64,000 nt of DNA, from NCBI RefSeq assembly GCF_041886205.1, contig NZ_CP169029.1; one strand, 5' to 3'. Positions 4,501-41,591 of the stretch are shown piece by piece (the first letter of the stretch is position 1; every line of letters begins with the position of its first letter). The stretch comes from Escherichia coli. GTDB taxonomy: Bacteria > Pseudomonadota > Gammaproteobacteria > Enterobacterales > Enterobacteriaceae. Both the position numbers and the translations under genes were made by a program. The notes under the pieces are model-generated. The model did no database searches. It had not been told where the DNA came from and saw nothing but the letters and a program-made list of their open reading frames with translations.

Positions 4501-4580
4501 ATTCCTCACGGGGGATAACAGGCAGCAGAACGCCGCCGGCAGGCCGGAGACTGCGTCTGTTGCAGATGAACGGTTAAGAA

Positions 4581-11863: not shown

Positions 11864-11926
11864 GCGTATTTTCATGAAAGGAGATCACTCAATACTCACC
11901 GATCTCCTTCACGGTAATACGCACTG
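11864..11926. repeat. copy 1 of an unclassified palindromic repeat (GCGTATTTTCATGAAAGGAGATCACTCAATA...CTCACCGATCTCCTTCACGGTAATA), with an internal 23-bp deletion
   Basis: Near-identical to 18491..18577 and 41536..41591; abuts the truncated 3' end of an IS66-family tnpC. Confidence 0.6.
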
Positions 11927-11999
11927 ACTCCGGTAATCCCCGTATTTCATCCTCGATGGCGTACTGTTCACTGATTCGCTTCAGGGCTTCTTCTGCCGT

Positions 12000-13100
12000 C
12001 TATACATCGTGGATTTTTCGCCGGGCATGGGCCCAGCACGCAACTTCTGTCAGTGCACCACCTTCACGTTCTGCACTGAACAACCTGTCGTAACCTGTGA
12101 ACGCATCCGCCTGCAGGATACCCCGGAAGGGGCGGAGGTGTTGCTCCGGGTATTTCCCCTGACGGTTCGGCGAGTACGCGAACCAGACCGCTGGAGGAGA
12201 TGACGAACCCACATTGCGATCATCCCGGACATACGTCCAGATACGCCCTGTTTTCGCCTTTTTCTGACCCGGTGCCAGTACCTTTACCGGTGTGTCATCA
12301 GTGTGAACCTTGCGGGTGTTCATTACATAACGGTACAGGGCATCATTCACCGGTGTCATTAACTGGCAGCACGCGTCAACCCAGTTGGAGAGTAAGGCCC
12401 GGCTCAGTTCGACACCCTGGCGGGCAAAGATTTCACTCTGACGATACAGTGGCAGATGTTCGCAGTATTTTCCCGTTAACACGCGGGCAAGTAATCCGGA
12501 GCCCGCGATACCACGCTCTATCGGGCGGGACGGCGCCGGTGCTTCAACAATACAGTCACATTTTGTACAGGCTTTTTTTACCCGTTCTGTGCGGATCACT
12601 TTCAGGGCACTGCTCACCAGTTCCAGCTGTTCAGCGCTGACTTCCCCCAGATAATCCAGCTCACCGCCACACTCCGGGCAACAGCTTTCTTCTGGCTCCA
12701 GGCGGTGTATTTCACGGGGAAGGTGTGCCGGTAACGGACGACGATGGCGCGACTGTCGCAACTGGCGGGGAACCTGAGGATCGTCTTCCCGCCCACTGTA
12801 ACGATCGCTGTCCTGTTCACGTTGTTTCAGCAGGGCCTCAGCCAGTTCAACTTCACGACGCAGTTTTTCAGAACGGGTACCGAACAGCATCCGGCGCAGT
12901 TTTTCTATCTGAGCCCGCAGATGTTCTATTTCCCGTTCATCTTCTTCGATCTTTTCTTCGGCACGTGTCAGTGCAGAGCGCAGGAAGGCTTCCGTCTCTT
13001 CAACCAGACTCAGTTGCTGGTCTTTCTGACGGAGGGCTTCAGCCTGCTCAGAGAGCAACCTTTCCAGCTCTGCGATGCGAATGAGGTATTTCTGACTCAT
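12000..13100 (-). pseudogene. tnpC: IS66-family TnpC transposase, C-terminally truncated (366 of about 520 aa)
   Basis: MSQKYLIRIAELERLL...CPECGGELDYLGE...[13 protein letters not shown] then premature stop; compare the full-length copies at 14608..16179 and 50332..51903. Confidence 0.8.
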
Positions 13101-13130
13101 GACCGTTTTTATAATGCGGTCAGGAGTTTT

Positions 13131-13481
13131 TTACAACATTGTCAGTGAGTTACGGCGGGATGTTTTTGGCTGACGCCAGTCCAGCTTATCGAGGAGCATT
13201 GCCAGTTGCGAGCGGGTAATGGATACCTTGCCGTCACGTACCGCAGGCCAGATAAACTGGCCTTCCTCCAGGCGTTTGGTGAACAGGCACAGACCATCAG
13301 CATCAGCCCAAAGAATTTTAACGGTGTCACCCCGTCGGCCACGGAAGATAAACAGGTGACCGGAGAAGGGATTATCATTCAGCACATGTTGTACCTGTTC
13401 TCCCAGTCCGTTGAAGGATTTACGCATATCGGTAACGCCGGCAACGAGCCAGATACGGGTACCTGATGGGAGTGAGATCAT
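13131..13481 (-). CDS. tnpB: IS66-family TnpB (Orf2)
   Basis: 116 aa, MISLPSGTRIWLVAGVTDMRKSFNGLGEQV...; start overlaps the tnpA stop. Confidence 0.85.
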   Translation of the reverse strand: MISLPSGTRIWLVAGVTDMRKSFNGLGEQVQHVLNDNPFSGHLFIFRGRRGDTVKILWADADGLCLFTKRLEEGQFIWPAVRDGKVSITRSQLAMLLDKLDWRQPKTSRRNSLTML

Positions 13482-13903
13482 CTTCCCCTCCCGGTCAGTT
13501 CACGGATCAACACCGTGAGCAGCTCTGGCGATGGATTTTCCAGCGTCATGTTACCGTGACGGAATTCCACCTTGCAGGAACTGGCACTGACTCTGGTCTG
13601 AGTGGAAGTGGATAAAGACGGCGCAATGGCCGCCACAGGTTCTTTCTGCTCATCCGGCGTTATTTCTACAGGTAATAATTCAACGCCAGTGTCAGAAGAG
13701 GTCTTTACCGGAAGACGCCGCGAAACACGCCCTTCGTTCTGCCAGAGCCTGAGCCATTTGAAAATAACATTATCATTGACGCCATTTTCACGTGCAATCT
13801 GTGCAACACAAGCTCCAGGTTGTGATGCCAGTTCCACCATACGAAGTTTGAATTCATTCGAATAGTTTTTACGAGGTTCTTTTCGCCAGTCCTGTAATTC
13901 CAT
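13478..13903 (-). CDS. tnpA: IS66-family TnpA (Orf1)
   Basis: 141 aa with HTH region ...ASQPGACVAQIARENGVNDNVIFKWLRLW... Confidence 0.85.
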   Translation of the reverse strand: MELQDWRKEPRKNYSNEFKLRMVELASQPGACVAQIARENGVNDNVIFKWLRLWQNEGRVSRRLPVKTSSDTGVELLPVEITPDEQKEPVAAIAPSLSTSTQTRVSASSCKVEFRHGNMTLENPSPELLTVLIRELTGRGR

Positions 13904-13990
13904 ACTTAGATGTCCGTCTATATCAGATGGGCGTCTAAGTTACCAATTCTCGTCTGATGGCTACATACGGCGGTCAGTTTACGCTTACAC

Positions 13991-14211
13991 AACAATGGCG
14001 CGAGGGAAAGCTGCTATTACCTTCTTCAGAGAGCCCCCAGCTACTTCCTGTGACTCTTGATGCAGTTGCCGAACAGCCAGAATCGCTCGCAGAGGACCCG
14101 GAAACCCTCAGTATCAGTTGTGAGGTAACGTTCCGGCACGGGACGCTCCGCTTCAATGGCAATGTCAGCGAAAAGCTCCTGACTCTGCTGATACAGGAAC
14201 TGAAGCGATGA
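13991..14211 (+). pseudogene. tnpA: IS66-family TnpA, C-terminal fragment only
   Basis: Matches the C-terminal 73 aa of ORF 25092..25493 (...[54 protein letters not shown]). Confidence 0.8.
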
Positions 14212-14558
14212 TCCCGTTACCTTCCGGGACCAAAATTTGGCTGGTTGCCGGTATCACCGATATGAGAAATGGCTTCAACGGCCTGGCTGCGAAAGTACAA
14301 ACGGCGCTGAAAGACGATCCCATGTCCGGCCATGTTTTCATTTTCCGGGGCCGCAGCGGCAGTCAGGTTAAACTGCTGTGGTCCACCGGTGACGGACTGT
14401 GCCTCCTGACCAAACGGCTGGAGCGTGGGCGCTTCGCCTGGCCGTCAGCCCGTGATGGCAAAGTGTTCCTTACGCAGGCGCAGCAACTGGCGATGCTGCT
14501 GGAAGGTATCGACTGGCGACAGCCTAAGCGGCTGCTGACCTCCCTGACCATGCTGTAA
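14208..14558 (+). CDS. tnpB: IS66-family TnpB
   Basis: 116 aa [31 protein letters not shown]...; ATGA overlap with tnpA. Confidence 0.85.
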
Positions 14559-14607
14559 ATCTCTTTATCCTGGTTGTCACAGAATAAGCCCGGTAAAATA
14601 CGGGCTT

Positions 14608-16179
14608 ATGAACGACATTTCTTCTGACGACATCTTCCTGCTGAAACAGCGCCTGGCCGAACAGGAAGCGCTGATCCACGCCCTGCAGGAAAAGCTGAGC
14701 AACCGGGAGCGCGAAATAGACCATCTGCAGGCGCAGTTGGATAAACTCCGCCGGATGAACTTCGGCAGTCGTTCCGAAAAAGTCTCCCGCCGTATCGCAC
14801 AAATGGAAGCCGATCTGAACCGGCTTCAGAAAGAGAGCGATACGCTGACTGGTAGGGTGTATGACCCGGCAGTACAGCGTCCGTTGCGTCAGACCCGCAC
14901 CCGTAAGCCGTTCCCTGAATCACTACCCTGTGACGAAAAGCGACTGTTGCCTGCGGCGCCGTGCTGCCCGAACTGCGGCGGTTCACTGAGCTATCTGGGC
15001 GAGGATACCGCCAAACAGCTGGAGTTGATGCGTAGCGCCTTCCGGGTTATCCGGACGGTACGGGAAAAACATGCCTGTACTCAGTGCGATGCCATCGTGC
15101 AGGCACCTGCACCTTCGCGGCCCATCGAGCGGGGTATCGCCGGACCGGGGCTGCTGGCCCGCGTGCTGACCTCGAAGTATGCAGAGCACACCCCGCTGTA
15201 TCGCCAGTCAGAAATATACGGCCGGCAAGGTGTGGAGCTGAGCCGTTCACTGTTGTCGGGCTGGGTGGATGCATGCTGCCGGCTGCTGTCTCCGCTGGAA
15301 GAGGCGCTTCATGGCTATGTCATGACTGACGGCAAACTCCATGCCGATGATACCCCGGTCCAGGTACTGCTGCCGGGTAATAAGAAGACGAAGACCGGGC
15401 GGTTGTGGGCGTATAAGAAGACGAAGACCGGGCGGTTGTGGGCGTATGTTCGTGATGACCGCAATGCCGGGTCAGCGTTGGCACCTGCAGTGTGGTTCGC
15501 TTACAGCCCGGACAGAAAAGGCATCCATCCGCAGACTCATCTTGCTTGCTTCAGCGGTGTGCTGCAAGCGGATGCGTACGCCGGGTTCAACGAGCTGTAT
15601 CGCAATGGTGGGATAACGGAAGCTGCCTGCTGGGCTCATGCCCGCCGAAAGATCCACGATGTGCACGTCCGCATCCCGTCAGCACTGACGGAAGAAGCCC
15701 TGGAGCAGATCGGTCAGTTGTACGCCATAGAGGCGGATATAAGGGGAATGCCGGCAGAGCAGCGGCTTGCTGAACGTCAGCGAAAAACGAAACCGCTGTT
15801 GAAATCCCTGGAAAGCTGGTTGCGTGAAAAGATGAAGACCCTGTCGCGACACTCAGAGTTGGCGAAGGCGTTCGCGTACGCACTTAACCAGTGGCCGGCA
15901 CTGACGTACTATGCGAACGATGGCTGGGTGGAAATCGACAACAACATCGCTGAAAATGCCCTGCGGGCGGTCAGTCTGGGTCGTAAAAACTTCCTGTTCT
16001 TCGGCTCTGACCATGGTGGTGAGCGGGGAGCGCTACTGTACAGCCTGATCGGGACGTGCAAACTGAATGACGTGGATCCAGAAAGCTACCTTCGCCATGT
16101 GCTTGGCGTCATAGCAGACTGGCCGGTCAACCGGGTCAGCGAACTGCTTCCGTGGCGCATAGCACTGCCAGCTGAATAA
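14608..16179 (+). CDS. tnpC: IS66-family TnpC transposase (523 aa) carrying an in-frame 33-bp tandem duplication
   Basis: Full-length ORF with the CPNCGGSL zinc-ribbon-like motif; [11 protein letters not shown] is repeated twice (15382..15447). Confidence 0.85.
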
Positions 16180-16351
16180 CACATCCCCGTCAATACGGCC
16201 CTCGCTGTACGCTTACGAGTAAGATTTCTTAAAAAATATAACAATAACAAAAAATTGAAATATATCACAAAAAAATCAATATACCCCTTATAAGGCCTGG
16301 ATGACTGTACAGCATGTATATGCCAGAAAACCGGTTTATGTGAATCAGGGT

Positions 16352-17086
16352 TTACCCGTCACCAGTTGTGTCCTTAATACCATACTGTTTTAACCACTGA
16401 CAGGGAGTGACTGAGTAGTATTTTCTGAAACTTAAAATAAAATACGACAGACTGCTATATCCGCACTCTCTAGCGACAATAAAAATGTTAGCATTCCCGC
16501 ACTTCATCAGAGTTATTGCCTTTTTCATACGTACTTCTGTGATTATCCGGCTGAATCCTGCGCCTTCACTGTGCAGTTTTCTTTTAAGCTGACTGGCACT
16601 TATACATAACGCTGATGCAACATCTGACAGATACCATTTCTTTGCCGGCTCTGCGGCAACAATAGCTTCAACACGTAACGAGTAGTTATTCAGCCCACCG
16701 GACAATACAGGCAGCAACTGGTTTTTATCATTAAGATAATCCAGCAGCACAAATAATACTGACTCATAAAGGTTAGTATTTTTCTGTTGTTCCACAAGTG
16801 ACATCAGCGAGTTCAGAAAGGTACCATACGCTTTCTTTCTGAAAAAAGAATTTTTCCTGTCAGTGATGCATAACGCATCGGCATCCCTCAGTCTGATATA
16901 CAGATAGTCGCTGATGATATGACAGGGTATATCAATAAACCTCACACATCCTTCACAGGCATCCGTAATATACTGAATGTCATTTCTTTTAAGAAAGAGA
17001 ATTTCATTCCGGGCAAAATCAAGCTCTTCATTGTAAAATGAAGCACAGAATGGCCTCACTATAATGGCAAAACAATACGGAAACAT
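16352..17086 (-). CDS. AraC-family transcriptional regulator (Rns/CfaD-like, AT-rich gene)
   Basis: 244-aa ORF with a C-terminal AraC-type HTH (...YLSDVASALCISASQLKRKLHSEGAGFSRIITEVRMKKAITLM...GYSSLSYFILSFRKYYSVTPCQW...). Confidence 0.7.
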   Translation of the reverse strand: MFPYCFAIIVRPFCASFYNEELDFARNEILFLKRNDIQYITDACEGCVRFIDIPCHIISDYLYIRLRDADALCITDRKNSFFRKKAYGTFLNSLMSLVEQQKNTNLYESVLFVLLDYLNDKNQLLPVLSGGLNNYSLRVEAIVAAEPAKKWYLSDVASALCISASQLKRKLHSEGAGFSRIITEVRMKKAITLMKCGNANIFIVARECGYSSLSYFILSFRKYYSVTPCQWLKQYGIKDTTGDG

Positions 17087-17241
17087 ACAGTACAGGTGTT
17101 ATTTAGAAATATCCGGTATTTTTCTTATTATAGCTGACAGACTTACTTCCTGACATTATATTAAGAAGTTCGATTTTATTATTAAAGTAACCGGACAAAA
17201 TACAGTCCGGTCACCGTGGTTATACGCGCATATAAATGTTA

Positions 17242-17871
17242 TCAGTCACCTTCATTCAGGCTGACAGTATCCGTAATCACACCATCTTCTGCACCTTTCA
17301 GTGCAAGATTGGCTTCGTAGTATTTCCCTTCGCTCATTAATTTTTGCGCACTGTTAACCTTTTTCTGCGTCTGTTTTAATGGCATCAGCCACTGCGTTTC
17401 TGAAATATCAATTCCGGCGAGATGCAGTACGTCAATTGCTCCTTTTTTGTCACCTTTATCCAGTTTTTTATTGGCCTCATCAATAGCTTTCTGTTTTTCC
17501 GGGGTGACAGTAAAGTCTTCAGACAACATTAAGCTGCTGTTAATAATAATGTAGACATCGCCTTCCTGTGGTGTTTTTTTATCCTTGCGGACAACTGTTT
17601 CCCATGTTTTATCATCAGATTTAAGCAAATCTTCAGCCCGGTTTATCAGCTTATCTGCTGCTCCTGTGTCACCACTGAATAAGGCAAGACGTGCATACTG
17701 CATGTCATCCATAATTTCCATACCACGCTGTTCTGCCTTCAGACTCCTTTCTGATAAAACTGTCTGAGCCTCATTTTTTGTGGATGAAGTGTTTTCTGAA
17801 GTTGCTGAGGCCATTGCGACAGCAGAGGTCAGGGACAGAGCGATTGCTACAGCATTAAAGATATGTTTCAT
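17242..17871 (-). CDS. yfdX: YfdX-family periplasmic protein
   Basis: 209 aa with signal peptide MKHIFNAVAIALSLTSAVAMA and a conserved C-terminal ...SEGKYYEANLALKGAEDGVI... region. Confidence 0.7.
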   Translation of the reverse strand: MKHIFNAVAIALSLTSAVAMASATSENTSSTKNEAQTVLSERSLKAEQRGMEIMDDMQYARLALFSGDTGAADKLINRAEDLLKSDDKTWETVVRKDKKTPQEGDVYIIINSSLMLSEDFTVTPEKQKAIDEANKKLDKGDKKGAIDVLHLAGIDISETQWLMPLKQTQKKVNSAQKLMSEGKYYEANLALKGAEDGVITDTVSLNEGD

Positions 17872-18490
17872 ATTTTTTACTCCGACATCAGGCAGAAAGA
17901 ATCATACCTGATAATAAACATAATATGATTTTCCCCCTGACGATTAGTCATATACTCAGGAAGCCGGACAAGGATGTCCCCCTCCCGGACATTTATATTC
18001 CCCTATCCGGCATGCATATTTTATGTTCTGCAACTGATATAAGAAATCTGACCACTTACCCCCACACAAAAAATAAATACCGAACCGGTAATATCACAAT
18101 ACATCATTATAAAATTATATTTATGTTACCAGTAATTTTTATGCCATCACAAGCCCAAAAAATCATTAATAACCCACCCCGCTCCATGCAAATAAAAGAA
18201 AATACATTTCACATGAAATACCATGATATATATATTGCCCGGAGTGATGGTGTTTTTATGAAGCAATTTAAATAATACAGATAACTGTAATTTATCATTC
18301 AGACGAAGAGATTTGATTTACACGGTAAGAGCATATGGCACATTACAACAGGGGTCTCTGTGAATATATACAGAAAACATATCTCATAAAACCCGGGAAA
18401 TGCCCCATGAATACAGGACAGTGAAAACAGGCATGATAATCAGGAAAGCCATGCCTGATACAGAAAAAGTTACCTGCGGGGATAATGCAT

Positions 18491-18577
18491 GCGTATTTTC
18501 ATGGAAGGAGATCACTCAATAACTTCCATCGAGAGCGGGTAATAACTCACCGATCTCCTTCACGGTAATAAGCAATG
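18491..18577. repeat. copy 2 (most complete) of the unclassified palindromic repeat
   Basis: GCGTATTTTCATGGAAGGAGATCACTCAATAACTTCCATCGAGAGCGGGTAATAACTCACCGATCTCCTTCACGGTAATAAGCA; the arms AAGGAGATC and GATCTCCTT can pair. Confidence 0.6.
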
Positions 18578-18622
18578 CACAACCAGGCACTTACTGGCCG
18601 GTTATCCATGTCTATATTATAT

Positions 18623-18850
18623 TTACATCACGTCAGTTTTCATAAAGGCTGTGAACAGCCAGTAAATCAGGCCACTGAATACCAGCCACAGCACAACTAG
18701 GGCTGCAACCCTCACAGGGATATCACACTCTTCCGGCACTTTTTCCACAGCCATACTGCACAGATGGACTGTCATAACAGAAATCATCACAACAGCAAGG
18801 ATATGAATGAAAAGAAAAACGACTTTCATTTTCCGGAAATGCATATACAA
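18623..18850 (-). CDS. small hydrophobic (membrane) protein, hypothetical
   Basis: 75-aa ORF with two predicted transmembrane stretches; no family recognised. Confidence 0.25.
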   Translation of the reverse strand: MYMHFRKMKVVFLFIHILAVVMISVMTVHLCSMAVEKVPEECDIPVRVAALVVLWLVFSGLIYWLFTAFMKTDVM

Positions 18851-19162
18851 ACCCTGACTCAGCCTGTCCTGTCTTTCCTGATCCTCTGTAATCTTAACTT
18901 ATCCATGCGCTGACGAAGTCTGCCCGGAACACGCCCGCTCTTTCTTGAAATATGAGCACAGATAAAATCTTCAAGCAGAAAATGCATGTCCTGCATTACC
19001 ACATCTTCTTTTTTGTCTTTCACTGAAAAATGCCTGACAAAATCGCTCATGAAAATGTTTCTGAAACGCTGTTATCCAGCTTCAGAAACCGGTACTGCCT
19101 TCACCAACACAAATCATTTTGTTGTCACTGTCTGACCTGTTCTCCCCTCCCGGAACTCGCTG

Positions 19163-20197
19163 TTACTGATAGGAAAATGTAAATGTTGATATTCCGTTAA
19201 CCGTACCCGGATTAATTCCCTCACCAGTATTCACATACTTTACATACAACCGGACTGAGGGTGACGTTTCCGTTCCTGTTGATAACTGCCACTGGTTTTC
19301 ATTTCCCTTTACCGGCGAATCAGGTCCAAACTTCAGGGGCGTACTGTCAGTGTTTTTGTATATTCTCAGCCCGACTCCGGTTGCAGTCGATGCCCCCGTC
19401 AGTGTGAGTATATCGCTTCTGTTGGACGGTGTGGTCGCATCAGTCAGTGTTGCCCATACTGTTACTCCGGCATCACACTGTAATTTCAGTGATGTTGTCC
19501 CGGCGACAACTTCATCACCGGATGATGGCAGTTGTCCGGCAGAAATTGCAGCCAGGCTGACATTGACTGCGGAAGGTGTCAGTAATCTGCACGATGTTAC
19601 TGTGTCATTCAGCGTAAATGGATTCAGGCTGAAATTCACTGTGGTCTGAACACTGCCTGCAGATGAACCGTTATAGGGCCTCATTCTGATACTCCCGATG
19701 CTGGTCTTCTGTACACTGTATCGCGCAGAGGAATTTCTTTTTAAAATTACAGGTGTTACACGAACAGACAGTCCCTGGGTTGATGCAGTATTAGCTCCGA
19801 CACACCATCCGGAAAAGACATTTTCCCATGAGTTTCCGCTCATCGCGGTACCCCTGGAATAATTCGTGTCCCCCATCCATATAAGGAGCCCCACCTCCTC
19901 TGTCAGCCCATAAATACTCTGCCCGTCAAGACTGCCAACCACGGGTAAATCCACTTTCCCGTCCAGCCCGACACAAAATCCCTTAGAAATACGCCAGACA
20001 TTTGCATTCTGATATCCAATGTTGTTACCGGTATTATAGACAAATGGCAGGTTATCCATTGCATGAGTTCTGGAATAAGAGCCTGGAGATGGTCCCACAT
20101 CGTTTTCCGTACTGCCAATAAATGAAACTGCCGCCTGACTGATATTGCAGCAAACCAGAATGAATACAGCCAGAAAGACCTTATAAAAATTTGTCAT
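19163..20197 (-). CDS. fimbrial tip adhesin, F17-G-like two-domain adhesin (344 aa)
   Basis: Signal peptide, then an N-terminal lectin-like domain and a C-terminal pilin domain; last gene of a major pilin/chaperone/usher/adhesin operon. Confidence 0.7.
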
Positions 20198-20198
20198 A

Positions 20199-22736: not shown

Positions 22737-22749
22737 TTACGGGCCCTTA

Positions 22750-23472: not shown

Positions 23473-23539
23473 ACAGGCTCCGTAAACACGGGGCAAAATG
23501 CCCCGTGAACACTTAAGAAGGCAGGTATTAAGATAAAAA

Positions 23540-24088: not shown

Positions 24089-24227
24089 AGAATCCTCAGT
24101 GAAACTGATAAGAATATATCATGAAAACAGCAGCAATTAAGAATTTAACTTAATATATTAAGAATAAATTTAATTGCCTATATACAAGATTATCCATAGT
24201 TAAAAAAACTCTCAAAACGTTAAAAAC

Positions 24228-25837: not shown

Positions 25838-25856
25838 ATCCCTTTACCTGGGCAGG

Positions 25857-29400: not shown

Positions 29401-29553
29401 AGAGAAAAATATCAGCCCGGGAATGGCTCAACTGGCGCCGGATGGCACAGAGACGCTGACCGTCACGGCCCCGGACTGGACTGACACCATTACCCGTCTG
29501 ACGATCGGCAGTGGTACGGACCTGGCTTCCGGCATCGTGGTGGGGAACTATCC
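26444..29553 (+). pseudogene. cdiA: cdiA internal segment (filamentous haemagglutinin-type repeat region), 5'-truncated and fused in frame to the tnpC remnant
   Basis: Long Gly/Asn/Thr/Ser-rich repeat region (...LTNSGLLQGEASLTVNTQRLDNQ...); no cdiB or CdiA secretion domain upstream; interrupted at 29553 by IS186. Confidence 0.8.
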
Positions 29554-30892: not shown

Positions 30893-30902
30893 GGAACTAT
30901 CC

Positions 30903-33900
30903 CCTGCCTTCCGGTAACAATGGTTATTTTGTCCCGTCCACGGACCCGGACAGTCCGTATCTGATTACGGTGAATCCGAAACTGGATGGTCTCGGAAAGG
31001 TGGACAGCAGTCTGTTTGCCGGACTGTATGACCTGCTCAGGATGCACCCCGGGCAGGCACCACGTGAAACAGACCCGGCGTATACTGATGATAAACAATT
31101 CCCGGGCTCATCGTATTTTCTTGACCGGCTCGGGCTGAAACCGGAAAAAGATTATCGCTTCCTGGGGGATGCCGCTTTTGATACCCGCTATGTATCGAAC
31201 TATATGCTGAACCAGATCGGGGGGCGCTATATCAACGGGGTTGGTTCAGACACCGACCAGATGCGCTACCTGATGGATAACGCTGCCCGTGCACAGAAGG
31301 CGCTCGGTCTGAAGTTTGGTGTGGCACTGACAGCAGACCAGGTGGCGGCTCTCGACCAAAGTATTCTGTGGTATAAAGCCGTCACGATAAAGGGTCAGAC
31401 GGTGATGGTGCCGGAAGTGTATCTGTCACCGAAAGATGTGACGCTGCAGAACGGCAGTATTATCAGCGGTCAGAATGTGCACCTGGCAGGAGGGAATGTC
31501 ACTAACAGTGGCAGTACCCTGATGGCGCAGAATGATCTCACCATCGACAGCGCTGACAGTCTGGGTAACCTTGAGTCCGGGCTTATAAATGCCGGTGGCG
31601 CTCTCGGACTGAAAGCGATGGGCGATATCAACAATATCAGTGCCACGATTACCGGTAAGACTGTCCGGCTGGAGAGTCTCGCCGGCAATGTCAATAATCT
31701 CACCCGGTACTCACACTGGCAGCTTGATGCACCGGAAGACAGCCTCGCCCTGAAACACACTTATACGGGAAGCATTGCCTCTGTCAGTGCCATGGATAGT
31801 CTGGACATCCGGGCAGATAAAAACATTTCGGTCACAGGGGCAGAAATCAGCGCCGGAGGTCGCGCAGCACTTATTGCCGGCAATGATCTCAGTCTGAATG
31901 CCATTGACAGGGTAAGCAGCAGTCGCCATGCAAACAGTGAATCTCACCAGCGCAGTGCAGAACTTACGACCATTACTGCCGGCGACAGTGTGATGCTGAG
32001 TGCAGGCCGGGATGTGAGCAGTCAGGGTGCAGGTATCGCAGCGGAAGACAACATCACTGTCCGGGCCGGGCGCGACGTTAATCTGCTGGCGGAAGAGTCC
32101 GTGACCGGCAGCAGTTCATACTCGAAAAAGAAAACGGTCATTGATGAAACCGTTCGCCAGCAGGGAACGGAAATCGCCAGCGGTGGTGACACCACCATTA
32201 CTGCAGGACGGGATATCACCGCTGTTGCGTCATCCGTTACCGCAACCGGCAATATCAGTGTGAATGCCGGTCGTGATGTCGCCCTGACCACGGCGACAGA
32301 AAGTGACTATCACTATCTGGAAACGAAGAAAAAAAGCGGAGGTTTTCTCAGTAAGAAAACCACCCACACCATCAGTGAGAACAGTGCCACCCGTGAAGCA
32401 GGCGCCCTGCTGTCGGGGAACCGCGTGACCGTTAACGCCGGTGATAACCTGACAGTACAGGGTTCGGATGTGGTGGCTGACCGGGATGTGTCACTGGCGG
32501 CGGGTAACCATGTTGATGTTCTTGCTGCCACCAATACAGATACGTCCTGGCGCTTTAAGGAAACGAAGAAATCCGGTCTGATGGGTACCGGCGGTATTGG
32601 TTTCACCATTGGCAGCAGTAAGACAACGCACGACCGCCGCGAGGCCGGGACAACGCAGAGTCAGAGTGCCAGCACCATCGGCTCCACTGCCGGTAATGTC
32701 AGTATTACCGCGGGCAAACAGGCTCATATCAGCGGTTCGGATGTGATTGCGAACCGGGATATCCGCATTACCGGTGACAGTGTGGTGGTTGACCCGGGGC
32801 ATGACCGTCGTACTGTGGACGAAAAATTTGAGCAGAAGAAAAGCGGGCTGACGGTTGCCCTTTCCGGCACAGTGGGCAGTGCCATCAATAATGCGGTTAC
32901 CAGTGCACAGGAGACGAAGGAGAGCAGTGACAGCCGTCTGAAAGCCCTGCAGACCACAAAGACAGCGCTGTCTGGTGTGCAGGCCGGACAGGCTGCGGCA
33001 ATGGCCACCGCAACCGGTGACCCGAATGCGACGGGAGTCAGCCTGTCGCTCACCACCCAGAAATCGAAATCACAACAACATTCTGAAAGTGACACAGTAT
33101 CCGGCAGTACGCTGAATGCCGGGAATAATCTGTCTGTTGTCGCAACCGGCAAAAACAGGGGCGATAACCGCGGAGATATTGTGATTGCAGGAAGCCAGCT
33201 TAAGGCCGGTGGTAACACAAGCCTGGATGCCGCGAATGATATTCTGTTGAGTGGCGCTGCAAATACACAAAAAACAACGGGCAGGAACAGCAGCAGTGGC
33301 GGTGGCGTGGGTGTCAGTATCGGTGCCGGTGGTAACGGTGCCGGTATCAGTGTCTTTGCCAGCGTTAATGCGGCAAAAGGCAGCGAGAAAGGTAACGGTA
33401 CTGAGTGGACTGAAACCACAACAGACAGCGGTAAAACCGTCACCATCAACAGTGGTCGGGATACGGTACTGAACGGTGCTCAGGTCAACGGCAACAGGAT
33501 TATCGCCGATGTGGGCCACGACCTGCTGATAAGCAGCCAGCAGGACACCAGTAAGTACGACAGTAAACAGACCAGCGTGGCTGCCGGCGGCAGTTTTACC
33601 TTTGGCTCCATGACCGGCTCAGGTTACATCGCTGCCTCCCGGGATAAGATGAAGAGCCGCTTTGATTCCGTTGCTGAACAAACCGGAATGTTTGCCGGTG
33701 ACGGCGGCTTCGACATTACAGTGGGCAGACATACCCAACTGGATGGTGCGGTGATTGCCTCCACTGCCACACCGGATAAAAACCACCTGGATACCGGAAC
33801 GCTGGGGTTCAGTGACCTTCACAACGAAGCGGATTATAAAGTCAGTCACAGTGGAATCAGTCTGAGCGGTGGTGGCAGCTTCGGGGATAAATTTCAGGGT

Positions 33901-35406
33901 AACATGCCGGGTGGCATGATATCCGCCGGAGGTCACAGCGGACATGCGGAAGGAACGACTCAGGCCGCAGTGGCAGAAGGCACTATCACCATCCGGGACA
34001 GGGACAATCAGAAGCAGAATCTGGCGAACCTGAGCCGTGACCCTGCGCACGCTAATGACAGTATCAGCCCGATATTTGACAAGGAGAAAGAGCAGAGGCG
34101 TCTGCAGACAGTGGGGCTTATCAGTGACATAGGCAGTCAGGTGGCGGATATTGCGCGTACACAGGGAGAACTGAATGCGTTGAAGGCCGCGAAGGAAGCA
34201 ACCGGCGAAACACTTCCTGCTAATGCAACAGAGAAACAACGTCAGGAATATCTTGCGAAACTGCGTGACACGCAGGCTTACAGGAATGAAATGGCGAAGT
34301 ATGGCACTGGTAGTGAAATTCAGCGGGGTATCCAGGTCGCGATGGCAGCGCTTCAGGGCCTGGCGGGCGGCAATATGGCAGGCGCGCTGGCAGGTGCTTC
34401 AGCGCCGGAGCTGGCGAACATCATCGGTCATCACGCGGGTATTGATGACAATACAGCTGCAAAAGCCATTGCCCATGCCATTCTCGGTGGTGTGACAGCA
34501 GCCCTTCAGGGCAACAGTGCGGCAGCAGGCGCAATTGGCGCGGGTACTGGCGAAGTGATCGCGTCAGCCATTGCGAAAAGCCTCTACCCGGACGTAGATC
34601 CGTCGAAACTGACAGAAGAGCAGAAGCAAACTGTAAGCACGCTGGCAACGCTGTCAGCGGGTATGGCCGGCGGTATTGCCAGTGGCGATGTGGCTGGCGC
34701 GGCTGCTGGGGCTGGTGCCGGGAAGAACGTTGTTGAGAATAATTTACTTGGCGGTAGTGAAGATGCTCAGGCTGCGTGGATACGCCAGCATGGTATCGAC
34801 ATGGCGACATGTGCAGAAAACCCTTCCGGTGCCGCCTGCCAGAAAGCAATGAATGAGAGGGATGCTGTAGGGCTGGCTCTGGCAACAGGTACAGTGGCAC
34901 TACTCCCCGGTAGTGCTCAGGCTATGTGGGGACTGGGAGCAAGTGCGAATGCTGGTATCAGTTATCTGGCTGATGGTACTGTAGATCCGGCAAACGCAGC
35001 CATTGCAGGCTGGGTGAATGTGTTCAGCATGGGTAATGGCCTGGCGGGGACTGTGGGCTGGAATGCGGCAGGTGGTGCGCTGGGTAACTGGATCGACAAC
35101 AAAGATCCTCTGTCTGGTGCAATTTCAAATGGTATCGGTTCTGCTGCCGGGTATGGTATCGGTAAAGGTGTTACTTGGGGGACAGATAAGATTACGAATG
35201 CTGTAGGAAAATGGGTGACAAATGGCTGGGATCCTAAGTACGATCCAACATGGATAAAATATGCTGAAGTAAATCGTAACGATATCATTCGAGAAGGCAT
35301 GAAACCGAGCAATGTTCCTGGAACTGCTGGAGATATTGGCGGTTCTATAGGATCTGAGCTAGGTGGAAAAGTAACAGATAAAGTATCTGAGGAACTCAAG
35401 AAATGA
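30903..35406 (+). pseudogene. cdiA: cdiA 3' portion: repeat region, pretoxin region, VENN motif (34732..34743) and a Gly-rich C-terminal toxin domain (CdiA-CT)
   Basis: In-frame continuation of 26444..29553 once IS186 and one duplicate are removed; ...[15 protein letters not shown]... precedes a Gly/Ala-rich CT resembling membrane-acting CdiA-CTs. Confidence 0.8.
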
Positions 35407-35660
35407 AATATTCTTCTCGAGTGGTAATAGGTAAGTTTATTATATGCAGTTCAATTCTCTTATTGTGTTTTATTGGCATGATCTTAGCGGCCATAATAAC
35501 TAAACTAACGTTTGTAGCGTTAGCATGGTTTCAAAGCGGGATTTTTGAAGTTTTGTGGAGCGATATTGTTTATGCTGCTCAGTTGGGTGGTCTGGGGGGG
35601 GGCATATTAGGTTTTTGTTGGGTTTTGTTATATCTTTTTAGGGCAAAGGGCTTTAGTTGA
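35403..35660 (+). CDS. cdiI: CdiI immunity protein (85 aa, integral membrane)
   Basis: Overlaps the cdiA stop (ATGA); hydrophobic small protein [35 protein letters not shown]... Confidence 0.75.
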
Positions 35661-36564: not shown

Positions 36565-36779
36565 AAAAATATCTACTACTTCTTATTAAGTTGTTACTTA
36601 TATCTATAGCTACTTGCTCTATTGGAATAGTGGTTAGTATCTGGCTTATAGCTCGGGAACCAATACCTTCTGAGGTGTATGTAAAATACGGAATAATTGG
36701 CGCAGTAGTTGGCTTATGGGGAGGTGCTGGGATTTGGTTACAACTCTATCTACAAATGCGAAGATACTATCGTAAATAG
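36561..36779 (+). CDS. orphan cdiI immunity 1 (72 aa, membrane)
   Basis: ATGA overlap with the preceding CT; hydrophobic product MKKYLLLLIKLLLISIATCSIGIVVSIWL... Confidence 0.65.
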   Translation: MKKYLLLLIKLLLISIATCSIGIVVSIWLIAREPIPSEVYVKYGIIGAVVGLWGGAGIWLQLYLQMRRYYRK

Positions 36780-36784
36780 TTGTT

Positions 36785-37429
36785 GTTGAGAATAACTCAC
36801 TGGCGCATGTACTGGCAGCAGCGGAAGCGAACAAAGCAGGGACTGCAGAGAAATGGCAGGAAGAGCAGCAGGCTGCGATTAGAGAGGCGTGCAGTGGTGG
36901 TACGCCGGTTTCGTGTGAAACAGCAGTCGCAGCGATGGGAAGTGCAATGGTATGGCCGCTATTGCCAGGGGCGGCAGCCACTACAAGTCTGATAGGTGCA
37001 GGAGCGAATGCCGGCATCGGGTTACTGATTAACGGTGAAGTGAATCCAAATGATGTCATTCTTGGTTACTGGACGGGAGTCTTTACAGCAGGAACTAGGC
37101 TGTGGGGGACGATGGGTGTGAATGCGGCCAGCGGAGCCACATCCAGCTATCTAAAAGGTGATGATCCGCTGAAAGGTGGGGCAATGGGGGGAATGTCGTC
37201 AGGATTAGGATATGGTGCTGGCAAAGTTCTTCAGGGGCAACTCGATAAGTTCATTAATCCAAACTGGAAGAATTGGGAGTGGGTTGATGTTGGTATGGGC
37301 ATATCGAAGCCAATGCCATTAGATCCACTGCCTGGGGTTATCGGCAATATGGGAGGTTCTGCGTCTACAGAATACATCAACGATCGAATAGGAAAATCTT
37401 TGAGTGATAAATCAGGAGATAAGAAATGA
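36785..37429 (+). CDS. orphan cdiA-CT module 2 (VENN onward)
   Basis: Begins VENNSLAHVLAAAEANKAGTAEKWQEEQQAAIREACSGG...; ORF track 36935..37429; Gly-rich CT. Confidence 0.7.
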   Translation, partial: VENNSLAHVLAAAEANKAGTAEKWQEEQQAAIREACSGGTPVSCETAVAAMGSAMVWPLLPGAAATTSLIGAGANAGIGLLINGEVNPNDVILGYWTGVFTAGTRLWGTMGVNAASGATSSYLKGDDPLKGGAMGGMSSGLGYGAGKVLQGQLDKFINPNWKNWEWVDVGMGISKPMPLDPLPGVIGNMGGSASTEYINDRIGKSLSDKSGDKK

Positions 37430-37680
37430 GTTCTTCTGACCGCAAAAAGATCCTGATCCTTTTAATATGCATGGTGACTGGTAGTGCTGTTGGTGTTTTT
37501 ATAACCATACTATCTATGTCTTTATTAATAGATATATATCTATATATCGCAGAAGGTATAAGGTTAGACATGCATACATATAATCTTGAAAAACTTTTTA
37601 AAGTAAGTTCATTCTGTGGTTGTATAGGCGGCGGTGGCTGTTGGTTACTCTATTATCGAAATTATAGAAAAAATAAATAA
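37426..37680 (+). CDS. orphan cdiI immunity 2 (84 aa, membrane)
   Basis: ATGA overlap; MSSSDRKKILILLICMVTGSAVGVFITILSMSLLIDIYL... Confidence 0.65.
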   Translation: MSSSDRKKILILLICMVTGSAVGVFITILSMSLLIDIYLYIAEGIRLDMHTYNLEKLFKVSSFCGCIGGGGCWLLYYRNYRKNK

Positions 37681-37683
37681 TAG

Positions 37684-37809
37684 TTGAGAATAACTACCTC
37701 AGCTACGACGAGGCGCATGCTTTTGACAGAGAAATGACGGCCTGTCGTAAAGCGGGTGGAGACTGTGGCGATATTCAGAATAAATATGCTGTATTAAGCG
37801 CAGAGAACC
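37684..37809 (+). pseudogene. remnant duplicate of the 5' end of orphan cdiA-CT 1, closed by a TAG
   Basis: 37684-37806 matches 35656-35778 ([45 protein letters not shown]) then TAG. Confidence 0.7.
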
Positions 37810-39173
37810 GACAGAAATAGGATATTGCCGGGCTCAGCCGGGACCCGGAAAACGCCAACGGCAGCATTGCACCGATATTTGACAGGGAGAAAGAGCAGAA
37901 GCGTCTTCAGGAAGCGCAGGTTATCAGCCAGATTAGCGGTCAGATGAGTAACATCGTCATGACGTATGGCGAAACTGAAGCGATGAAAGCAGCCAGGAAA
38001 GAGCATCCTGGCATGAGCGATGCACAGTTGCGGGAGACTCCGGAATACAGAGAGGTCATGAAAGGCTACGGTACGGGCAGTACGCCGCAGATGGTGGTAC
38101 AGGCCATCACAGGCGTGCTGGGCGGACTGAATGCAGGGAATCCGGGGCAGGTACTGGCTGGCGGTCTGAATCCGGCAGTGGCACAGCTTATAAAACAGGC
38201 CACCGGCGATAACCGGGAAGCAAACCTGATGGCTCACGCAGTCTGGGGAGCGCTTGCCGCACAACTGGGCGGAAACAATGCGGCTTCCGGTGCTGCAGGG
38301 GCATTCAGCGGTGAACTTGCAGCCCGGTATATCATTGATAACTACTACGGTGGTCGTACCGATAACCTGAGTGAACAGGAACGTCAGCAAATCAGCATGC
38401 TGGCCACCATTGCCTCAGGTATTGCGGGCGGGCTTGTCGGCAACAGTACAAGTGCTGCCGGTACGGGGGCACAGGCAGGCAGGAACTCGGTTGAGAATAA
38501 TGCGCTGAGTCTGGTTGCCAGAGGCTGTGCGGTCGCAGCACCTTGCAGGACTAAAGTTGCAGAGCAGTTGCTGGAAATCGGGGCGAAAGCGGGCATGGCC
38601 GGGCTTGCCGGGGCGGCAGTCAAGGATATGGCCGACAGGATGACCTCCGATGAACTGGAGCATCTGATTACCCTGCAAATGATGGGTAATGATGAGATCA
38701 CTACTAAGTATCTCAGTTCGTTGCATGATAAGTACGGTTCCGGGGCTGCCTCGAATCCGAATATCGGTAAAGATCTGACCGATGCGGAAAAAGTAGAACT
38801 GGGCGGTTCCGGCTCAGGAACCGGTACACCACCACCATCGGAAAATGATCCTAAGCAGCAAAATGAAAAACCTGTAGATAAGCTTAATCAGAAGCAAGAA
38901 AGTGCGATTAAGAAGATCGATAACACTATAAAAAATGCTCTGAAAGATCATGATATTATTGGAACTCTCAAGGATATGGATGGTAAGCCAGTTCCTAAAG
39001 AGAATGGAGGATATTGGGATCATATGCAGGAAATGCAAAATACGCTCAGAGGATTAAGAAATCATGCGGATACGTTGAAAAACGTCAACAATCCTGAAGC
39101 TCAGGCTGCGTATGGCAGAGCAACAGATGCTATTAATAAAATAGAATCAGCCTTGAAAGGATATGGAATATGA
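37810..39173 (+). CDS. orphan module 3: pretoxin region, VENN and a distinct C-terminal toxin domain, derived from a different cdiA allele
   Basis: ...[26 protein letters not shown]... parallels the main cdiA pretoxin region (34010-34740); VENN within [14 protein letters not shown] track 37944..39173. Confidence 0.7.
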
Positions 39174-39556
39174 TTACCTTACGTAAATTGATTGGAAACA
39201 TCAATATGACAAAAGAGCCTGAGCAACAATCACAGCTTGAACTCTGGTTCGAACGTATCATAGATGTGCCTCTTGAAAAGTTAACAGTGGAAGATCTTTG
39301 CCGCGCTATCCGACAAAATTTATGTATTGATCAGTTGATGCCAAGAGTGTTGGAAGTTCTAACTAAAGAGCCGTTAGCGGGTGAATATTACGATGGTGAA
39401 CTAATTGCAGCTTTATCAACGATAAAAGGAGAAGATCTAAAAGATCAGAAAAGTACCTTTACCCAAATAAGGCAACTTATAAACCAGCTAGAACCGTCAG
39501 ATATTAACGATGATTTAAGAAAAGATATATTAAAAATCAATCAGATAATTGTATAA
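39170..39556 (+). CDS. orphan cdiI immunity 3 (128 aa, soluble)
   Basis: ATGA overlap with the module 3 stop; product [43 protein letters not shown]... Confidence 0.6.
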
Positions 39557-39588
39557 CTAATCCCGGTCACTGAGCCGAGATCTTCTTT

Positions 39589-41380
39589 GTGTGCCGGGCA
39601 TGTTCAGCAGCTCGGGGGTGAAAGTCCCCTGTCCAGCCTGATGGTGGCGAAGGACTAGCGAAGCGCAAGGGCGTCGTCGTAAGGCGGGGTCTGAAGGAAG
39701 CGTGAAGCAAATCCATGACCTGACGAACAGAAATCCGATACGAGGCCTACCCGGTTGGCGGAGCAAGCAAAGAATTGCGAAGGCCATAACCATCAAGAAC
39801 CGGGGGGTAAATCGGACAGGTGTGTGGTGAAGGCGTCTGAACTTACCCCGGGAGGCCTGTCCGTCGTTCTGTATCTAGAACTTAGCGTACCGTAAGGGGC
39901 GCTGACCGGCGGACAGGAGTCAGCAGAGGGCATAGTAGGGCATGACACCCGAAGGCCCGAACGGTAATGAGTGACGAGTATCAACGGAGGTTCTGAACGG
40001 TCATGCAGCAGAAAACGCATCGCGCCCCTGAGGCCGGAGAACGGGGTGAAGCCCCGAACGCCGCCCTTCCGGGGGCTGAAACCGTGCAGGCACCGACGAA
40101 CAGAGAAAGTCCGTCGTCAACAGTGTGGCTGATGGAAGCCATTTGTGAACCAGTCAATCTCAGGCAAGCCCTGAAAAGAGTTAAAGCCAACAAAGGTGCA
40201 GCGGGAGTCGATGGTATGCGCGTAAGCGAACTGCCGGACTACCTGAGGCACCACTGGCCAGAGCTGAAAGCGCAACTACTGTCTGGCAGATACCGCCCAT
40301 CTCCTGTGAGAAGAGTGTCCATACCGAAGCCCGGCGGCGGCGAACGTCTGCTGGACATCCCGACGGTGGTGGATCGCTTCATCCAGCAGGCGATGATGCA
40401 GGTATTGCAGGGGCACTGTGGGATAGCTCGTTCAGCGATAACAGCTACGGGTTCCGTCCCGGTCGTTCGGCCCACCAGGCAGTGATACAGGCCCGGGAAC
40501 ATATCGGGGCCGGGTATCACTGGGTGGTCGACCTCGATCTGGAGAAGTTCTTCGACCGGGTAAATCACGATGTGCTGATGAGCCGGATAGAGAAACGAGT
40601 ATCGGATAAACGGGTGTTGTCACTTATCCGCAGGTTCATGAATGCAGGGGTGATGGACGCAGGTCTGGTAAGGCCGGTGACAGAAGGAACGCCGCAGGGC
40701 GGCCCACTGTCGCCGCTGCTATCGAACCTGCTGCTTGACGACCTCGACAAGGAACTGGAGAAACGTGGTCTGAAGTTCGTGCGGTACGCAGACGACTGTA
40801 ATGTCTACGTGAAAAGCGAACGGGCAGACAACCGGATCATGGCGGGGTTGACGCACTGGCTGAGCCATAAACTGAAGCTGAAGGTCAACGCGAAGAAGAG
40901 TGCTGTAGCACGCCCTGAAACGCGCAAGTTCCCTGGATACAGCTTCATAAGGGGGCGGAAGGTATGGTGCGTGGTATCGCCGGAGTCGATAAAACGGTTC
41001 AAAATGCGGATAAGAGCACTGACCGGACGCAACACAGGGAGAAGCCTTGAACAGCTAACCCGGTTGCTAAAACGATATCTGACGGGCTGGAAAAGTTACT
41101 ACGGGCTGAACCAGAGGCCATCGCTGATGCGAGAGCTGAACGGATGGATAAGGCGCAGTCGAGGCGTAAGCAAGGACCTTGCGGCGCAAACAGCAGGAAG
41201 CTGCCATAAAGAGTGGCGGATAAGCTGTAGTCCGGCACTGAATATAGCACTCCCCAATAATCTGTTCTCCAGACTGGGCCTGCCAGAAGTATAGGCAGGC
41301 GACGATCAACATAACCGAACCGCCGTATACGGCCCCATACGTACGGTGGTGTGGGAGGAAGCTGATCGTGAGATCAGCTC
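39589..41380 (+). mobile_element. bacterial group II intron (about 1.8 kb) with a frameshifted intron-encoded protein
   Basis: 5' GTGTG at 39589; internal ORFs encode reverse-transcriptase motifs including the YADD box; a domain V-like hairpin (ACCGCCGTATACGG...ACGTACGGTGGT) lies near 41318-41350; the 3' boundary is approximate (about 20 bp either way). Confidence 0.7.
40003..41294 (+). pseudogene. group II intron reverse transcriptase/maturase split into two ORFs by a frameshift
   Basis: ORF 40003..40485 ends ...QGHCGIARSAITATGSVPVVRPTRQ while the next frame reads SSFSDNSYGFRPGRSAHQAVIQAREHIG... and continues into ORF 40482..41294, which carries ...FVRYADDCNVYV... Confidence 0.75.
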
Positions 41381-41446
41381 CTATCCCGATTTAACCGTCA
41401 GTCTCCCCCAAAATGCCCGTCCTGGCGCTTGTACACTGGCATATTG

Positions 41447-41535
41447 GCATGATCTTAGCGGCCATCATAGCTAAACTAACGTTTGTAGCGTTAACATGGT
41501 TTCAAAGCGGGATTTTTTAAGTTTTGTGGAATGAT
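41447..41535 (+). pseudogene. partial duplicate of cdiI (matches 35473-35561)
   Basis: GGCATGATCTTAGCGGCCAT[CA]ATA[GA]CTAAACTAACGTTTGTAGCGTTA[AG]CATGGTTTCAAAGCGGGATTTTT shared with the cdiI gene. Confidence 0.6.
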
Positions 41536-41591
41536 GCGTATTTTCATGAAAGGAGATCACTCAATAACTTCCATCGAGATCGGGTAATAAC
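41536..41591. repeat. copy 3 of the unclassified palindromic repeat (left half only), truncated by an IS66-family end
   Basis: GCGTATTTTCATGAAAGGAGATCACTCAATAACTTCCATCGAGATCGGGTAATAAC then GTAAGC of the IS begins at 41595. Confidence 0.6.

Follow-up and report, generated by a model that had tools for sequence, protein, structure and literature searches.

Short palindromic repeats in a mosaic island of Escherichia coli as probable remnants of ISEc12 ends

ISEc12 and other short repeats

The closest described relative of the palindromic repeat considered here is ISEc12, an insertion sequence of the IS21 family which encodes the DDE transposase IstA and the AAA+ helper ATPase IstB. The copy employed as reference (2573 bp) is located at 187-2759 of locus L005 from plasmid p38_A-OXA140; its IstA matches the NCBIfam model NF033546 (IS21 transposase) with 310 bits (cut-off 160) and its IstB the NCBIfam model NF038214 with 270 bits (cut-off 200). 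The flanks of this sequence differ between replicons, and the same ISEc12 end junction is found with varied flanks in more than 1700 genomes. Full-length ISEc12 is common: 1735 of 5426 E. coli genomes have matches to its ends, at a median of 3 places per genome. Each end of intact ISEc12 contains two direct repeats that serve as transposase-binding sites and lie 23 bp apart, the same spacing as described for IS5376 (PMC10122671). Their cores are GGAGATC at nt 18 (L1) and CGAGATC at nt 41 (L2, position read from the sequence) in the left end, and GATCTCC at nt 2528 (R2) and nt 2551 (R1) in the right end. The GGAGATC core occurs only six times in ISEc12, always at most 125 bp from the ends. The imperfect terminal inverted repeats, IRL and IRR, end with 5'-TG...CA-3' and read TGCGTATT... 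and ...AATACGCA, both in the reference and in copy 1 of the repeat described below. A 5-bp target duplication is the rule for ISEc12, e.g., ACGTA for the full-length tandem ISEc12 of strain 4/1-1 (L009) and ACTGC in the literature (PMC10711316). The L005 copy shows no clean target duplication (TAAGC / GCCAG) and served for the IS sequence only, not for the inference of duplications.

In the window, i.e., the whole stretch of 64,000 nucleotides of E. coli DNA that was analysed, the copies of the repeat share with ISEc12 the end sequence, the TG...CA termini, the GGAGATC-core repeats 23 bp apart, and, in copy 2, the 5-bp target duplication. They differ from it in lacking istA and istB and in keeping one or two of the four terminal repeats (copy 2 keeps L1, L2, and R1), as befits defective remnants. 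The same two terminal sequences also lie close together in the reactive junction of IS21-type tandems, (IS21)2, and strain 4/1-1 contains such an arrangement, IRR-AC-IRL, between two full ISEc12 copies (L009, about 3031-3034). In that junction, however, IRR precedes IRL and the outer ends face each other across a 2-bp spacer, whereas in the window copies IRL precedes IRR and the outer ends point outward, which argues for an internal deletion. ERIC/IRU and REP/BIME elements resemble the window repeat in being short, imperfectly palindromic, intergenic, and present in several copies, but they have no sequence relationship to it. The window repeat, in contrast, goes with mobile islands and plasmids, reaches only a low copy number in each genome, and has the sequence of an IS terminus.

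Copies of the repeat in the window

A first-pass annotation had described an unclassified palindromic repeat in three copies at rearrangement joints. The repeat is real and all three copies are present, although their total is incomplete, as a fourth copy exists on the minus strand at 962-1029, beyond the range covered earlier. The 25-nt core GCGTATTTTCATGRAAGGAGATCAC has four matches without mismatches in the window and the right-arm pattern has three, compared with 0.00 expected in each case (100 shuffles for the core). In blastn comparisons, the left part of the repeat is 96-100% identical to ISEc12 nt 1-57/60, and the right part corresponds to the final 30-31 nt of this IS (nt 2543/2544-2573; 96.5-100% in the window copies). 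In all likelihood, the palindromic repeat thus consists of the two terminal inverted repeats of ISEc12, left as gene-less remnants and one truncated end. With such identity to the ends of one known IS, the label "unclassified" has to be dropped. The outcome that the first-pass annotation had named as refuting its reading, i.e., that the repeat is internal sequence of one known IS whose other parts are deleted, describes essentially what was found, except that the sequence is terminal and not internal. The repeat is most likely an ordinary scar of transposon activity. The 9-bp complementary arms noted before correspond to the GGAGATC cores of L1 and R1, which are the outermost of the repeats bound by the transposase. 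As the first-pass annotation had implied, the window contains no intact element with such termini, and a blastn search with full ISEc12 detected neither further ISEc12 sequence nor istA or istB there. The locations given earlier are right, while the exact ends of the three copies are corrected by blastn to the coordinates below.

Copy 2 (18490-18574, plus strand, 85 bp) retains L1, L2, and R1 and consists of ISEc12 nt 1-57 (96.5% identity) joined to nt 2544-2573 (96.7%). It carries three private substitutions, G15, G46, and the A in its terminal TAAGCA, which is one substitution away from the TACGCA of the reference, and decay has reached the L2 core and this terminal hexamer. A perfect 5-bp target duplication, ATGCA, for which a search had been suggested earlier, can be read directly from the sequence at 18485-18489 and 18575-18579. 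The metagenome loci L036 and L080 have the same flanks as copy 2, and the 85-bp form is known from a single locus in 22 of the 5426 genomes.

Copy 1 (11863-11923, plus strand, 61 bp) retains L1 and R1, ISEc12 nt 1-32 being joined to nt 2543-2573 with 100% identity. Relative to copy 2 it lacks 24 nt and not the central 23 bp reported before; the exact loss of 23 nt is found in the related 62-bp form of E. coli Nissle. There is no target duplication at copy 1 (flanks GAAGG / CTGAC). As claimed earlier, it adjoins a truncated IS66 tnpC, since ISEc23-like homology is unambiguous from 11924 onward; this homology also overlaps the last 13 nt of copy 1, with 10 of 13 positions matching. The ISEc23-like tnpC (11924-13100, minus strand), delimited by alignment to ISEc23 in L010, shows about 89% identity, has an internal 18-bp deletion, and is truncated at its 3' end, next to copy 1; the listed ORF spans 12000-13100 and RefSeq annotates the same locus as a tnpC pseudogene. 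An identical 61-bp element exists in strain KE21 (L010) at a different, restriction-modification locus; a kinship between that locus and the left flank of copy 1 was considered and rejected, as there is no similarity.

Copy 3 (41535-41594, plus strand, 60 bp) is a complete left terminal repeat with L1 and L2, identical over its whole length to ISEc12 nt 1-60 (100%, blastn), and it is one-ended, the remainder of ISEc12 being missing. That it is cut by an IS66 end was correctly recognized before, as homology to other IS66 copies begins exactly at 41595. The IS66-family element at this position, comprising its right end and tnpC (41957-43444, from the ORF list) within 41595-43444 on the minus strand, starts with GTAAGCTTCCGG, has a GTAAGC-type end, and interrupts ISEc12 after nt 60. 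On the other side, copy 3 is preceded by an orphan cdiI-like immunity-gene fragment (41413-41534, plus strand), delimited by a direct repeat and ORFs. Its paralogue is an intact cdiI-like ORF (35403-35660) located downstream of CdiA; the two share a 94-nt direct repeat (35471-35564 and 41442-41535) with 94% identity, and the fragment is the target of the ISEc12 insertion that left copy 3.

Copy 4 (68 bp), detected by blastn and pattern matches, is a diverged IRL+IRR remnant of an ISEc12-like relative. It is situated upstream of the GTPase gene belonging to a CP4-type island and has no target duplication. Of 5426 E. coli genomes, 1302 contain the same 69-nt stretch, exclusively on chromosomes.

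One might suspect that such sequences merely resemble IS ends and are selected by the host as a terminator, an RNA-stabilising hairpin, a site for a regulatory protein, or a site-specific recombination site. Single strands of the 61- and 68-bp forms are predicted to fold into long hairpins (z = -5.5 and -7.4, respectively), and some forms are fixed at conserved intergenic positions in hundreds to more than 1000 genomes. However, complementarity of IRL and IRR fully accounts for the hairpin, copy 3 without a partner arm is unfolded (z = +1.4), and the minimum-energy fold of the 85-bp copy differs from the long hairpin. The wide fixation follows the mobile islands and plasmid backbones on which the remnants are located, and the degree of identity to transposon ends goes beyond mere similarity. 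No Rfam family matches the repeat at gathering threshold; a scan of the whole window at this threshold gave only STnc490 and group II intron matches, none of them at the copies. A host-selected function is therefore highly improbable, and the ideas of a recombination site or a regulatory hairpin put forward earlier find no support.

Fusions of ISEc12 ends in other genomes

Searches for copy number and insertion contexts, as proposed in the first-pass annotation, reveal ISEc12 ends and several types of IRL-IRR fusions across genomes. At least nine different, independent fusion types of 58-114 bp, including diverged relatives, exist in genomes, plasmids, and metagenomes, a size distribution biased by a scan pattern which allowed just 10-40 nt between cores; most types are confined to one locus. 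The 62/61-bp form occurs at one restriction-modification locus in 545 genomes. At this locus, the forms of Nissle and KE21 are flanked by a CCAGG target duplication, and in strain 298 the CCAGG site is unoccupied. An 82-bp form on an IncI-type plasmid has a TAAAG duplication and a 114-bp form on IncF plasmids a CCGGT duplication, each type being limited to one locus. The 62-bp form differs from the 85-bp form by precisely one 23-bp repeat unit, lost between two AATAAC repeats. The 61-bp junction type is found in at least three flank contexts (the restriction-modification locus of KE21, the window, and L083) and the 62-bp type in two; for the 61/62-bp type, seen in three to four contexts in a non-exhaustive survey, a duplication exists only at the restriction-modification locus.

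At the CCAGG site, two loci considered as candidates for a full-length ISEc12 progenitor were rejected, as L011 represents an IS3-family insertion into the mini-element, and in L012 the site is empty and a separate ISEc12 has inserted at a distance of 30 bp. When one genome per species was scanned for mini-elements (100,044 species), a single match emerged. It is of the diverged copy-4 type and lies on a contig of 1.2 kb which is assigned to a "Lachnospiraceae" MAG and resembles E. coli DNA, suggesting that the element is rare outside E. coli and the mobile DNA of this species.

Origin and meaning of the remnants

The remnants are very probably relics of internal deletions in ISEc12 insertions and thereby inert scars. 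ISEc12 would have inserted several times into the mosaic island, each time creating a 5-bp target duplication. Illegitimate or slipped recombination would then have removed about 2.5 kb of internal DNA between very short repeats that border the binding sites on their inner side, AATAAC / GTTAC in some cases and the 10-bp AAGGAGATCA elsewhere. Such loss would produce gene-less IRL-IRR fusions, and the palindrome would simply consist of IS inverted repeats brought next to each other. Copy 2 would have kept L1, L2, and R1 together with its intact ATGCA duplication, whereas in copy 1, reduced to L1 and R1, one of the original flanks may have been replaced by a further rearrangement at the IS66 tnpC. 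At copy 3, the body of ISEc12 seems to have been displaced by the IS66-family insertion and by later IS traffic. While the identity to ISEc12 ends, the end anatomy, the duplications, the empty site at another locus, and the independent junction types are direct observations, we infer the order of events, the deletion mechanism, and the present immobility of the remnants. Since no genome was found with a full-length ISEc12 exactly at the site of any remnant, we likewise infer the deletion in situ.

The structure of the fusions also calls to mind MITEs, miniature inverted-repeat transposable elements that arise from bacterial ISs through internal deletion. The fusions contain both IS ends within 58-114 bp, are non-coding, can form hairpins, and in some cases have target duplications, and the earlier term "small non-autonomous element" suits the structure of copies 1 and 2, gene-less inverted-repeat ends of which copy 2 has a duplication, although not with an unclassified status. 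They might thus form an active family of non-autonomous ISEc12 derivatives mobilized in trans by IstA/IstB, with transposition, or transposase-mediated adjacent deletion starting at their ends, generating joints at copy 1 and elsewhere. Target duplications of 5 bp (once 6 bp) at several loci and the empty CCAGG site would agree with this, as would the abundance of full-length ISEc12, yet duplications and empty sites are equally expected from full-length insertion followed by internal deletion. The occurrence of an identical 61-bp form in three flank contexts and of the 62-bp form in two points in the same direction, but most junction types are restricted to one locus, and the additional contexts of the 61/62-bp forms lack a duplication. 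In L083, the right flank is the same IS66 tnpC as in the window while the left flank differs, as expected if rearrangements begin at the left end of the element; on comparison, however, it did not prove to be the window flank shortened by a nested deletion, which would be a hallmark of transposase-mediated adjacent deletion.

In contrast to MITEs, the ISEc12 fusions show no sign of amplification, nearly every junction type being found at one locus, and the scan across species gave its one diverged match only. Their ends also fall short of the in vitro requirements of an IS21-family transposase: integration by IstA of IS5376 requires two complete direct repeats per end (PMC10122671). Of these repeats, the 61/62-bp forms have a single one at each end, R2 is missing from the 85-bp form, and copy 2 is mutated in L2 and in bases close to the terminal CA. 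By analogy with this requirement, which was measured on a different family member, the ends of the window mini-elements are unlikely to be competent. Literature searches on ISEc12 and on IS21-family MITEs turned up neither an ISEc12-derived MITE nor an account of such remnants. In strain ZYB39, whose chromosome matches the window, a probe detecting any full-length left end finds only two places; taking these as copies 2 and 3, an autonomous ISEc12 is probably absent there. The window and the ZYB39 chromosome are not perfectly colinear, with an offset of 1358 bp beyond about 20 kb. Altogether, an active MITE family is an improbable explanation.

Besides the missing full-length progenitors, two observations weigh against the internal-deletion origin. 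The junctions shared between contexts, the 61-bp type in at least three and the 62-bp type in two, could reflect movement of mini-elements and not recurrent identical deletions. In addition, the end points of the deletions fall within a narrow zone at the inner border of R1, which could indicate selection for retained ends or a transposase-linked process instead of random slippage. It is conceivable, if doubtful, that ISEc12 repeatedly collapses to 58-114-bp fusions because its synapsed ends promote the loss of the DNA between them, and that at least the 61/62-bp form is still recognized by IstAB in trans, as an undescribed IS21-family MITE. In the islands of E. coli, this MITE would then give rise to adjacent deletions and joints, among them those within a CRISPR repeat and at the IS66 tnpC. 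If true, such trans-mobilisable mini-elements would constitute a new, small family of MITEs from which adjacent deletions originate, still an incremental advance.

As relics of ISEc12, the repeats are of value for annotation, because automated pipelines name only transposase genes, so that gene-less IS ends stay blank and resemble mysterious repeats. Recognition of the ISEc12 ends explains three joints in this mosaic island of F17 fimbria, CdiA, and IS66 sequences and provides markers for reconstructing the order of its rearrangements.

Terminal repeats of ISEc12

The palindromic repeat described in the first-pass annotation can be read from the sequence at the three sites reported; in the 64-kb window the 25-nt core of its left arm occurs four times with 0 mismatches and the 23-nt pattern of its right arm three times, the expectation for each being 0.00 in 100 dinucleotide-preserving shuffles. 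Megablast searches with copy 2 match hundreds of IncF and other plasmids, only across the left ~60 nt, which in two plasmids precede, by ~190 bp, a gene with the annotation "IS21-like element ISEc12 family transposase"; the DNA to the left of this stretch is unlike between these two plasmids. A complete ISEc12 of 2573 bp (plasmid p38_A-OXA140, locus L005 187-2759) begins with TGCGTATTTTCATGAAAGGAGATCACTCAATAACTTCCATCGAGATCGGGTAATAACATT and ends with CGATCTCCATCGATGTTACTCACCGATCTCCTTCACGGTAATACGCA, and both its ORFs, for an IS21-family transposase and an IstB helper ATPase, score well over the curated NCBIfam cut-offs. Alignment to this element (blastn) sets the exact limits of the copies: copy 1 (11863-11923, 61 bp) consists of ISEc12 nt 1-32 and nt 2543-2573 at 100%, copy 2 (18490-18574, 85 bp) of nt 1-57 at 96.5% and nt 2544-2573 at 96.7%, and copy 3 (41535-41594, 60 bp) of nt 1-60 at 100%. 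A fourth copy (962-1029, minus strand, 68 bp), overlooked previously, is more diverged; it is a mini-remnant of an ISEc12-like relative, joining left (IRL) and right (IRR) terminal inverted repeats, and lies upstream of a CP4-type island GTPase gene.

The repeat, formerly regarded as unclassified, therefore equals the terminal repeats of ISEc12 (blastn, 96.5-100%), and is essentially sequence of one known IS, the rest of which is deleted here. With the whole element as query, blastn finds no ISEc12 sequence in the window beyond the copies and, since only ends are present, no istA or istB remains there. The window sequences belong to ISEc12 as its terminal repeats only; none is a functional copy of the IS. 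Leftover IS ends are well known, and the finding, though genuine, is an ordinary one. No description of ISEc12-derived mini-elements, i.e., gene-less IRL-IRR fusions, was found in the literature searched.

In the whole of ISEc12 (2573 bp), the heptamer GGAGATC and its complement have just six occurrences in all, always at most 125 bp from an end. The two outermost heptamers of the right end, at nt 2528 and 2551, are spaced by 23 bp, as are the left-end heptamers GGAGATC (nt 18) and CGAGATC (nt 41), a layout like that of the repeats L1/L2 and R1/R2 with 23-bp spacing reported for the IS21-family element IS5376, where an IstA tetramer forms on two repeats per end (PMC10122671). From this layout it follows that the 9-bp complementary arms noted earlier, AAGGAGATC and GATCTCCTT, do exist but are the cores of the putative transposase-binding repeats L1 and R1. 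Copy 1 is composed of L1+R1, copy 2 of L1+L2+R1, and copy 3 of L1+L2, i.e., the whole left end. A role of the repeat as regulatory hairpin or recombination site, as once proposed, finds no support: the strong folds simply reflect base pairing between IRL and IRR, no fold forms in copy 3, and the repeat has no Rfam match.

Insertion signatures and joints

When target duplications were checked, ATGCA was found on both sides of copy 2 as a perfect direct repeat of 5 bp; the copy lies between a yfdX-family gene and a small ORF upstream. This duplication length is the rule for ISEc12, as in the ACGTA around tandem full copies in strain 4/1-1 and the ACTGC duplication of a published insertion in tssM (PMC10711316). 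In strain 4/1-1 (NZ_CP023844.1, locus L009 ~451-5614) the two full elements lie in direct tandem inside the ACGTA duplication, and their abutted ends, IRR-AC-IRL (3031-3034), are a classic IS21-type (IS)2 reactive junction in a natural chromosome.

Copy 1, with flanks GAAGG and CTGAC, shows no target duplication. As described before, it adjoins a shortened IS66 tnpC, which is ISEc23-like and lies on its right side, ending ~400 nt early. The joint falls in a 13-nt patch where IS end and tnpC are identical at 10 of 13 positions, which could be microhomology or chance; at window 11911-11923 the ISEc12 right end reads ACGGTAATACGCA, and native ISEc23 tnpC (strain KE21, locus L010 2038-2050) reads ACGGCAAGACGCT.

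Copy 3 resides in an orphan cdiI-like gene fragment, a paralogue of the 85-codon ORF after CdiA (35403-35660), and is indeed interrupted past nt 60 by the IS66-type end GTAAGCTTCCGG; similarity to other IS66 copies starts exactly at window 41595, and this IS66 element is itself shortened by further IS material. The intact cdiI-like immunity ORF after CdiA (30970-35406) and the orphan copy share a 94-nt direct repeat of 94% identity (35471-35564 and 41442-41535), and in the window CdiA/CdiI orphan modules are interspersed with IS66 elements. Just upstream of the orphan fragment, Rfam matches to group II intron domains D1-D4 (39673-39957, plus strand; 130 and 50 bits) lie ahead of a 270-aa reverse-transcriptase ORF carrying a YADD motif (40482-41294, plus strand); together they resemble a group II intron that may be truncated.

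The near-identical E. coli chromosome of ZYB39 (NZ_CP098234.1) is 100% identical over the two compared stretches, 17000-20000 and 41435-41995, and between them (window ~20000-40400) is 1358 bp longer, probably owing to an extra IS. Elsewhere in the window, a full-length Rfam match (142 bits) to the Hfq-binding sRNA STnc490 (8159-8282, plus strand) adjoins IS2 and IS100 elements, according to RefSeq annotation at the corresponding ZYB39 positions.

Remnants in other genomes

Of 5426 complete genomes of E. coli, 22 contain the 85-bp form with its ATGCA duplication, at one place each, and the cases checked share the window's F17-fimbria locus. In 545 genomes a remnant of 62 bp (Nissle 1917) or 61 bp (KE21), flanked by CCAGG, lies upstream of an Alw26I-family methyltransferase; in strain 298 this site is unoccupied and a separate full ISEc12 lies 30 bp downstream. 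An 82-bp form flanked by TAAAG was seen in one IncI-type plasmid, and about 140 IncF plasmids carry a 114-bp form flanked by CCGGT, whose joint falls within the 10-bp direct repeat AAGGAGATCA found at ISEc12 nt 15-24 and nt 2474-2483. In pM217_FII (NZ_AP018147.1, locus L125 2001-2114) and the ~140 other IncF plasmids, this remnant joins a partial L1 to R2+R1 and maps to the leading region of the plasmid, where a hok-family toxin gene lies downstream of it. The 68-bp form of the copy-4 type, for which no duplication was seen, occupies a conserved spot of CP4-type islands in 1302 of the 5426 genomes (chromosomes only, up to four places per genome).

A pattern scan of metagenomes yields 112 mini-elements, including further junction types of 58, 60, 70, 80, and 83 bp. 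Some have duplicated flanks (GTATAC) and many have none, placing the latter at joints. One 80-bp ISEc12-like remnant (SKEU01001545.1, locus L018 1868-1947) abuts an incomplete CRISPR repeat of type I-E, GTGTTCCCCGCG|TGCG..., and its opposite flank is unrelated; the array appears to be cut off at the IS end. Among 100,044 species, scanned with one genome per species, there is a single match.

Deletion or spread

The main rival explanation, for which there is some support, is that the mini-elements are an active MITE: the window remnants are alike in structure to MITEs, and three different flank contexts were seen for an identical 61-bp form, and two for the 62-bp form. However, the extra contexts lack duplications, and the alternative flank in locus L083 is no nested deletion of the window's flank. 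In addition, IS5376 integration requires two complete repeats per end (PMC10122671) and, by analogy, ends with a single repeat should not permit integration. MITEs are defined by amplification and mobilisation in trans; amplification was not found for the remnants, whose likeness to MITEs is structural.

Junction positions coincide with short repeats that terminate the binding sites, namely AATAAC following L1 and L2 and GTTAC preceding R1. Compared with the 85-bp form, the 62-bp form lacks exactly one 23-bp repeat unit. Substitutions in copy 2, in the L2 core and adjacent to the terminal CA, are as expected for a decaying relic. In ZYB39, a probe able to detect any full-length ISEc12 left end matches only two places; as these presumably are copies 2 and 3, an autonomous ISEc12 is probably absent from this chromosome. 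The numerous internal junction types, mostly restricted to a single locus, indicate that resident ISEc12 copies suffered repeated independent internal deletions, rather than one mini-element spreading.
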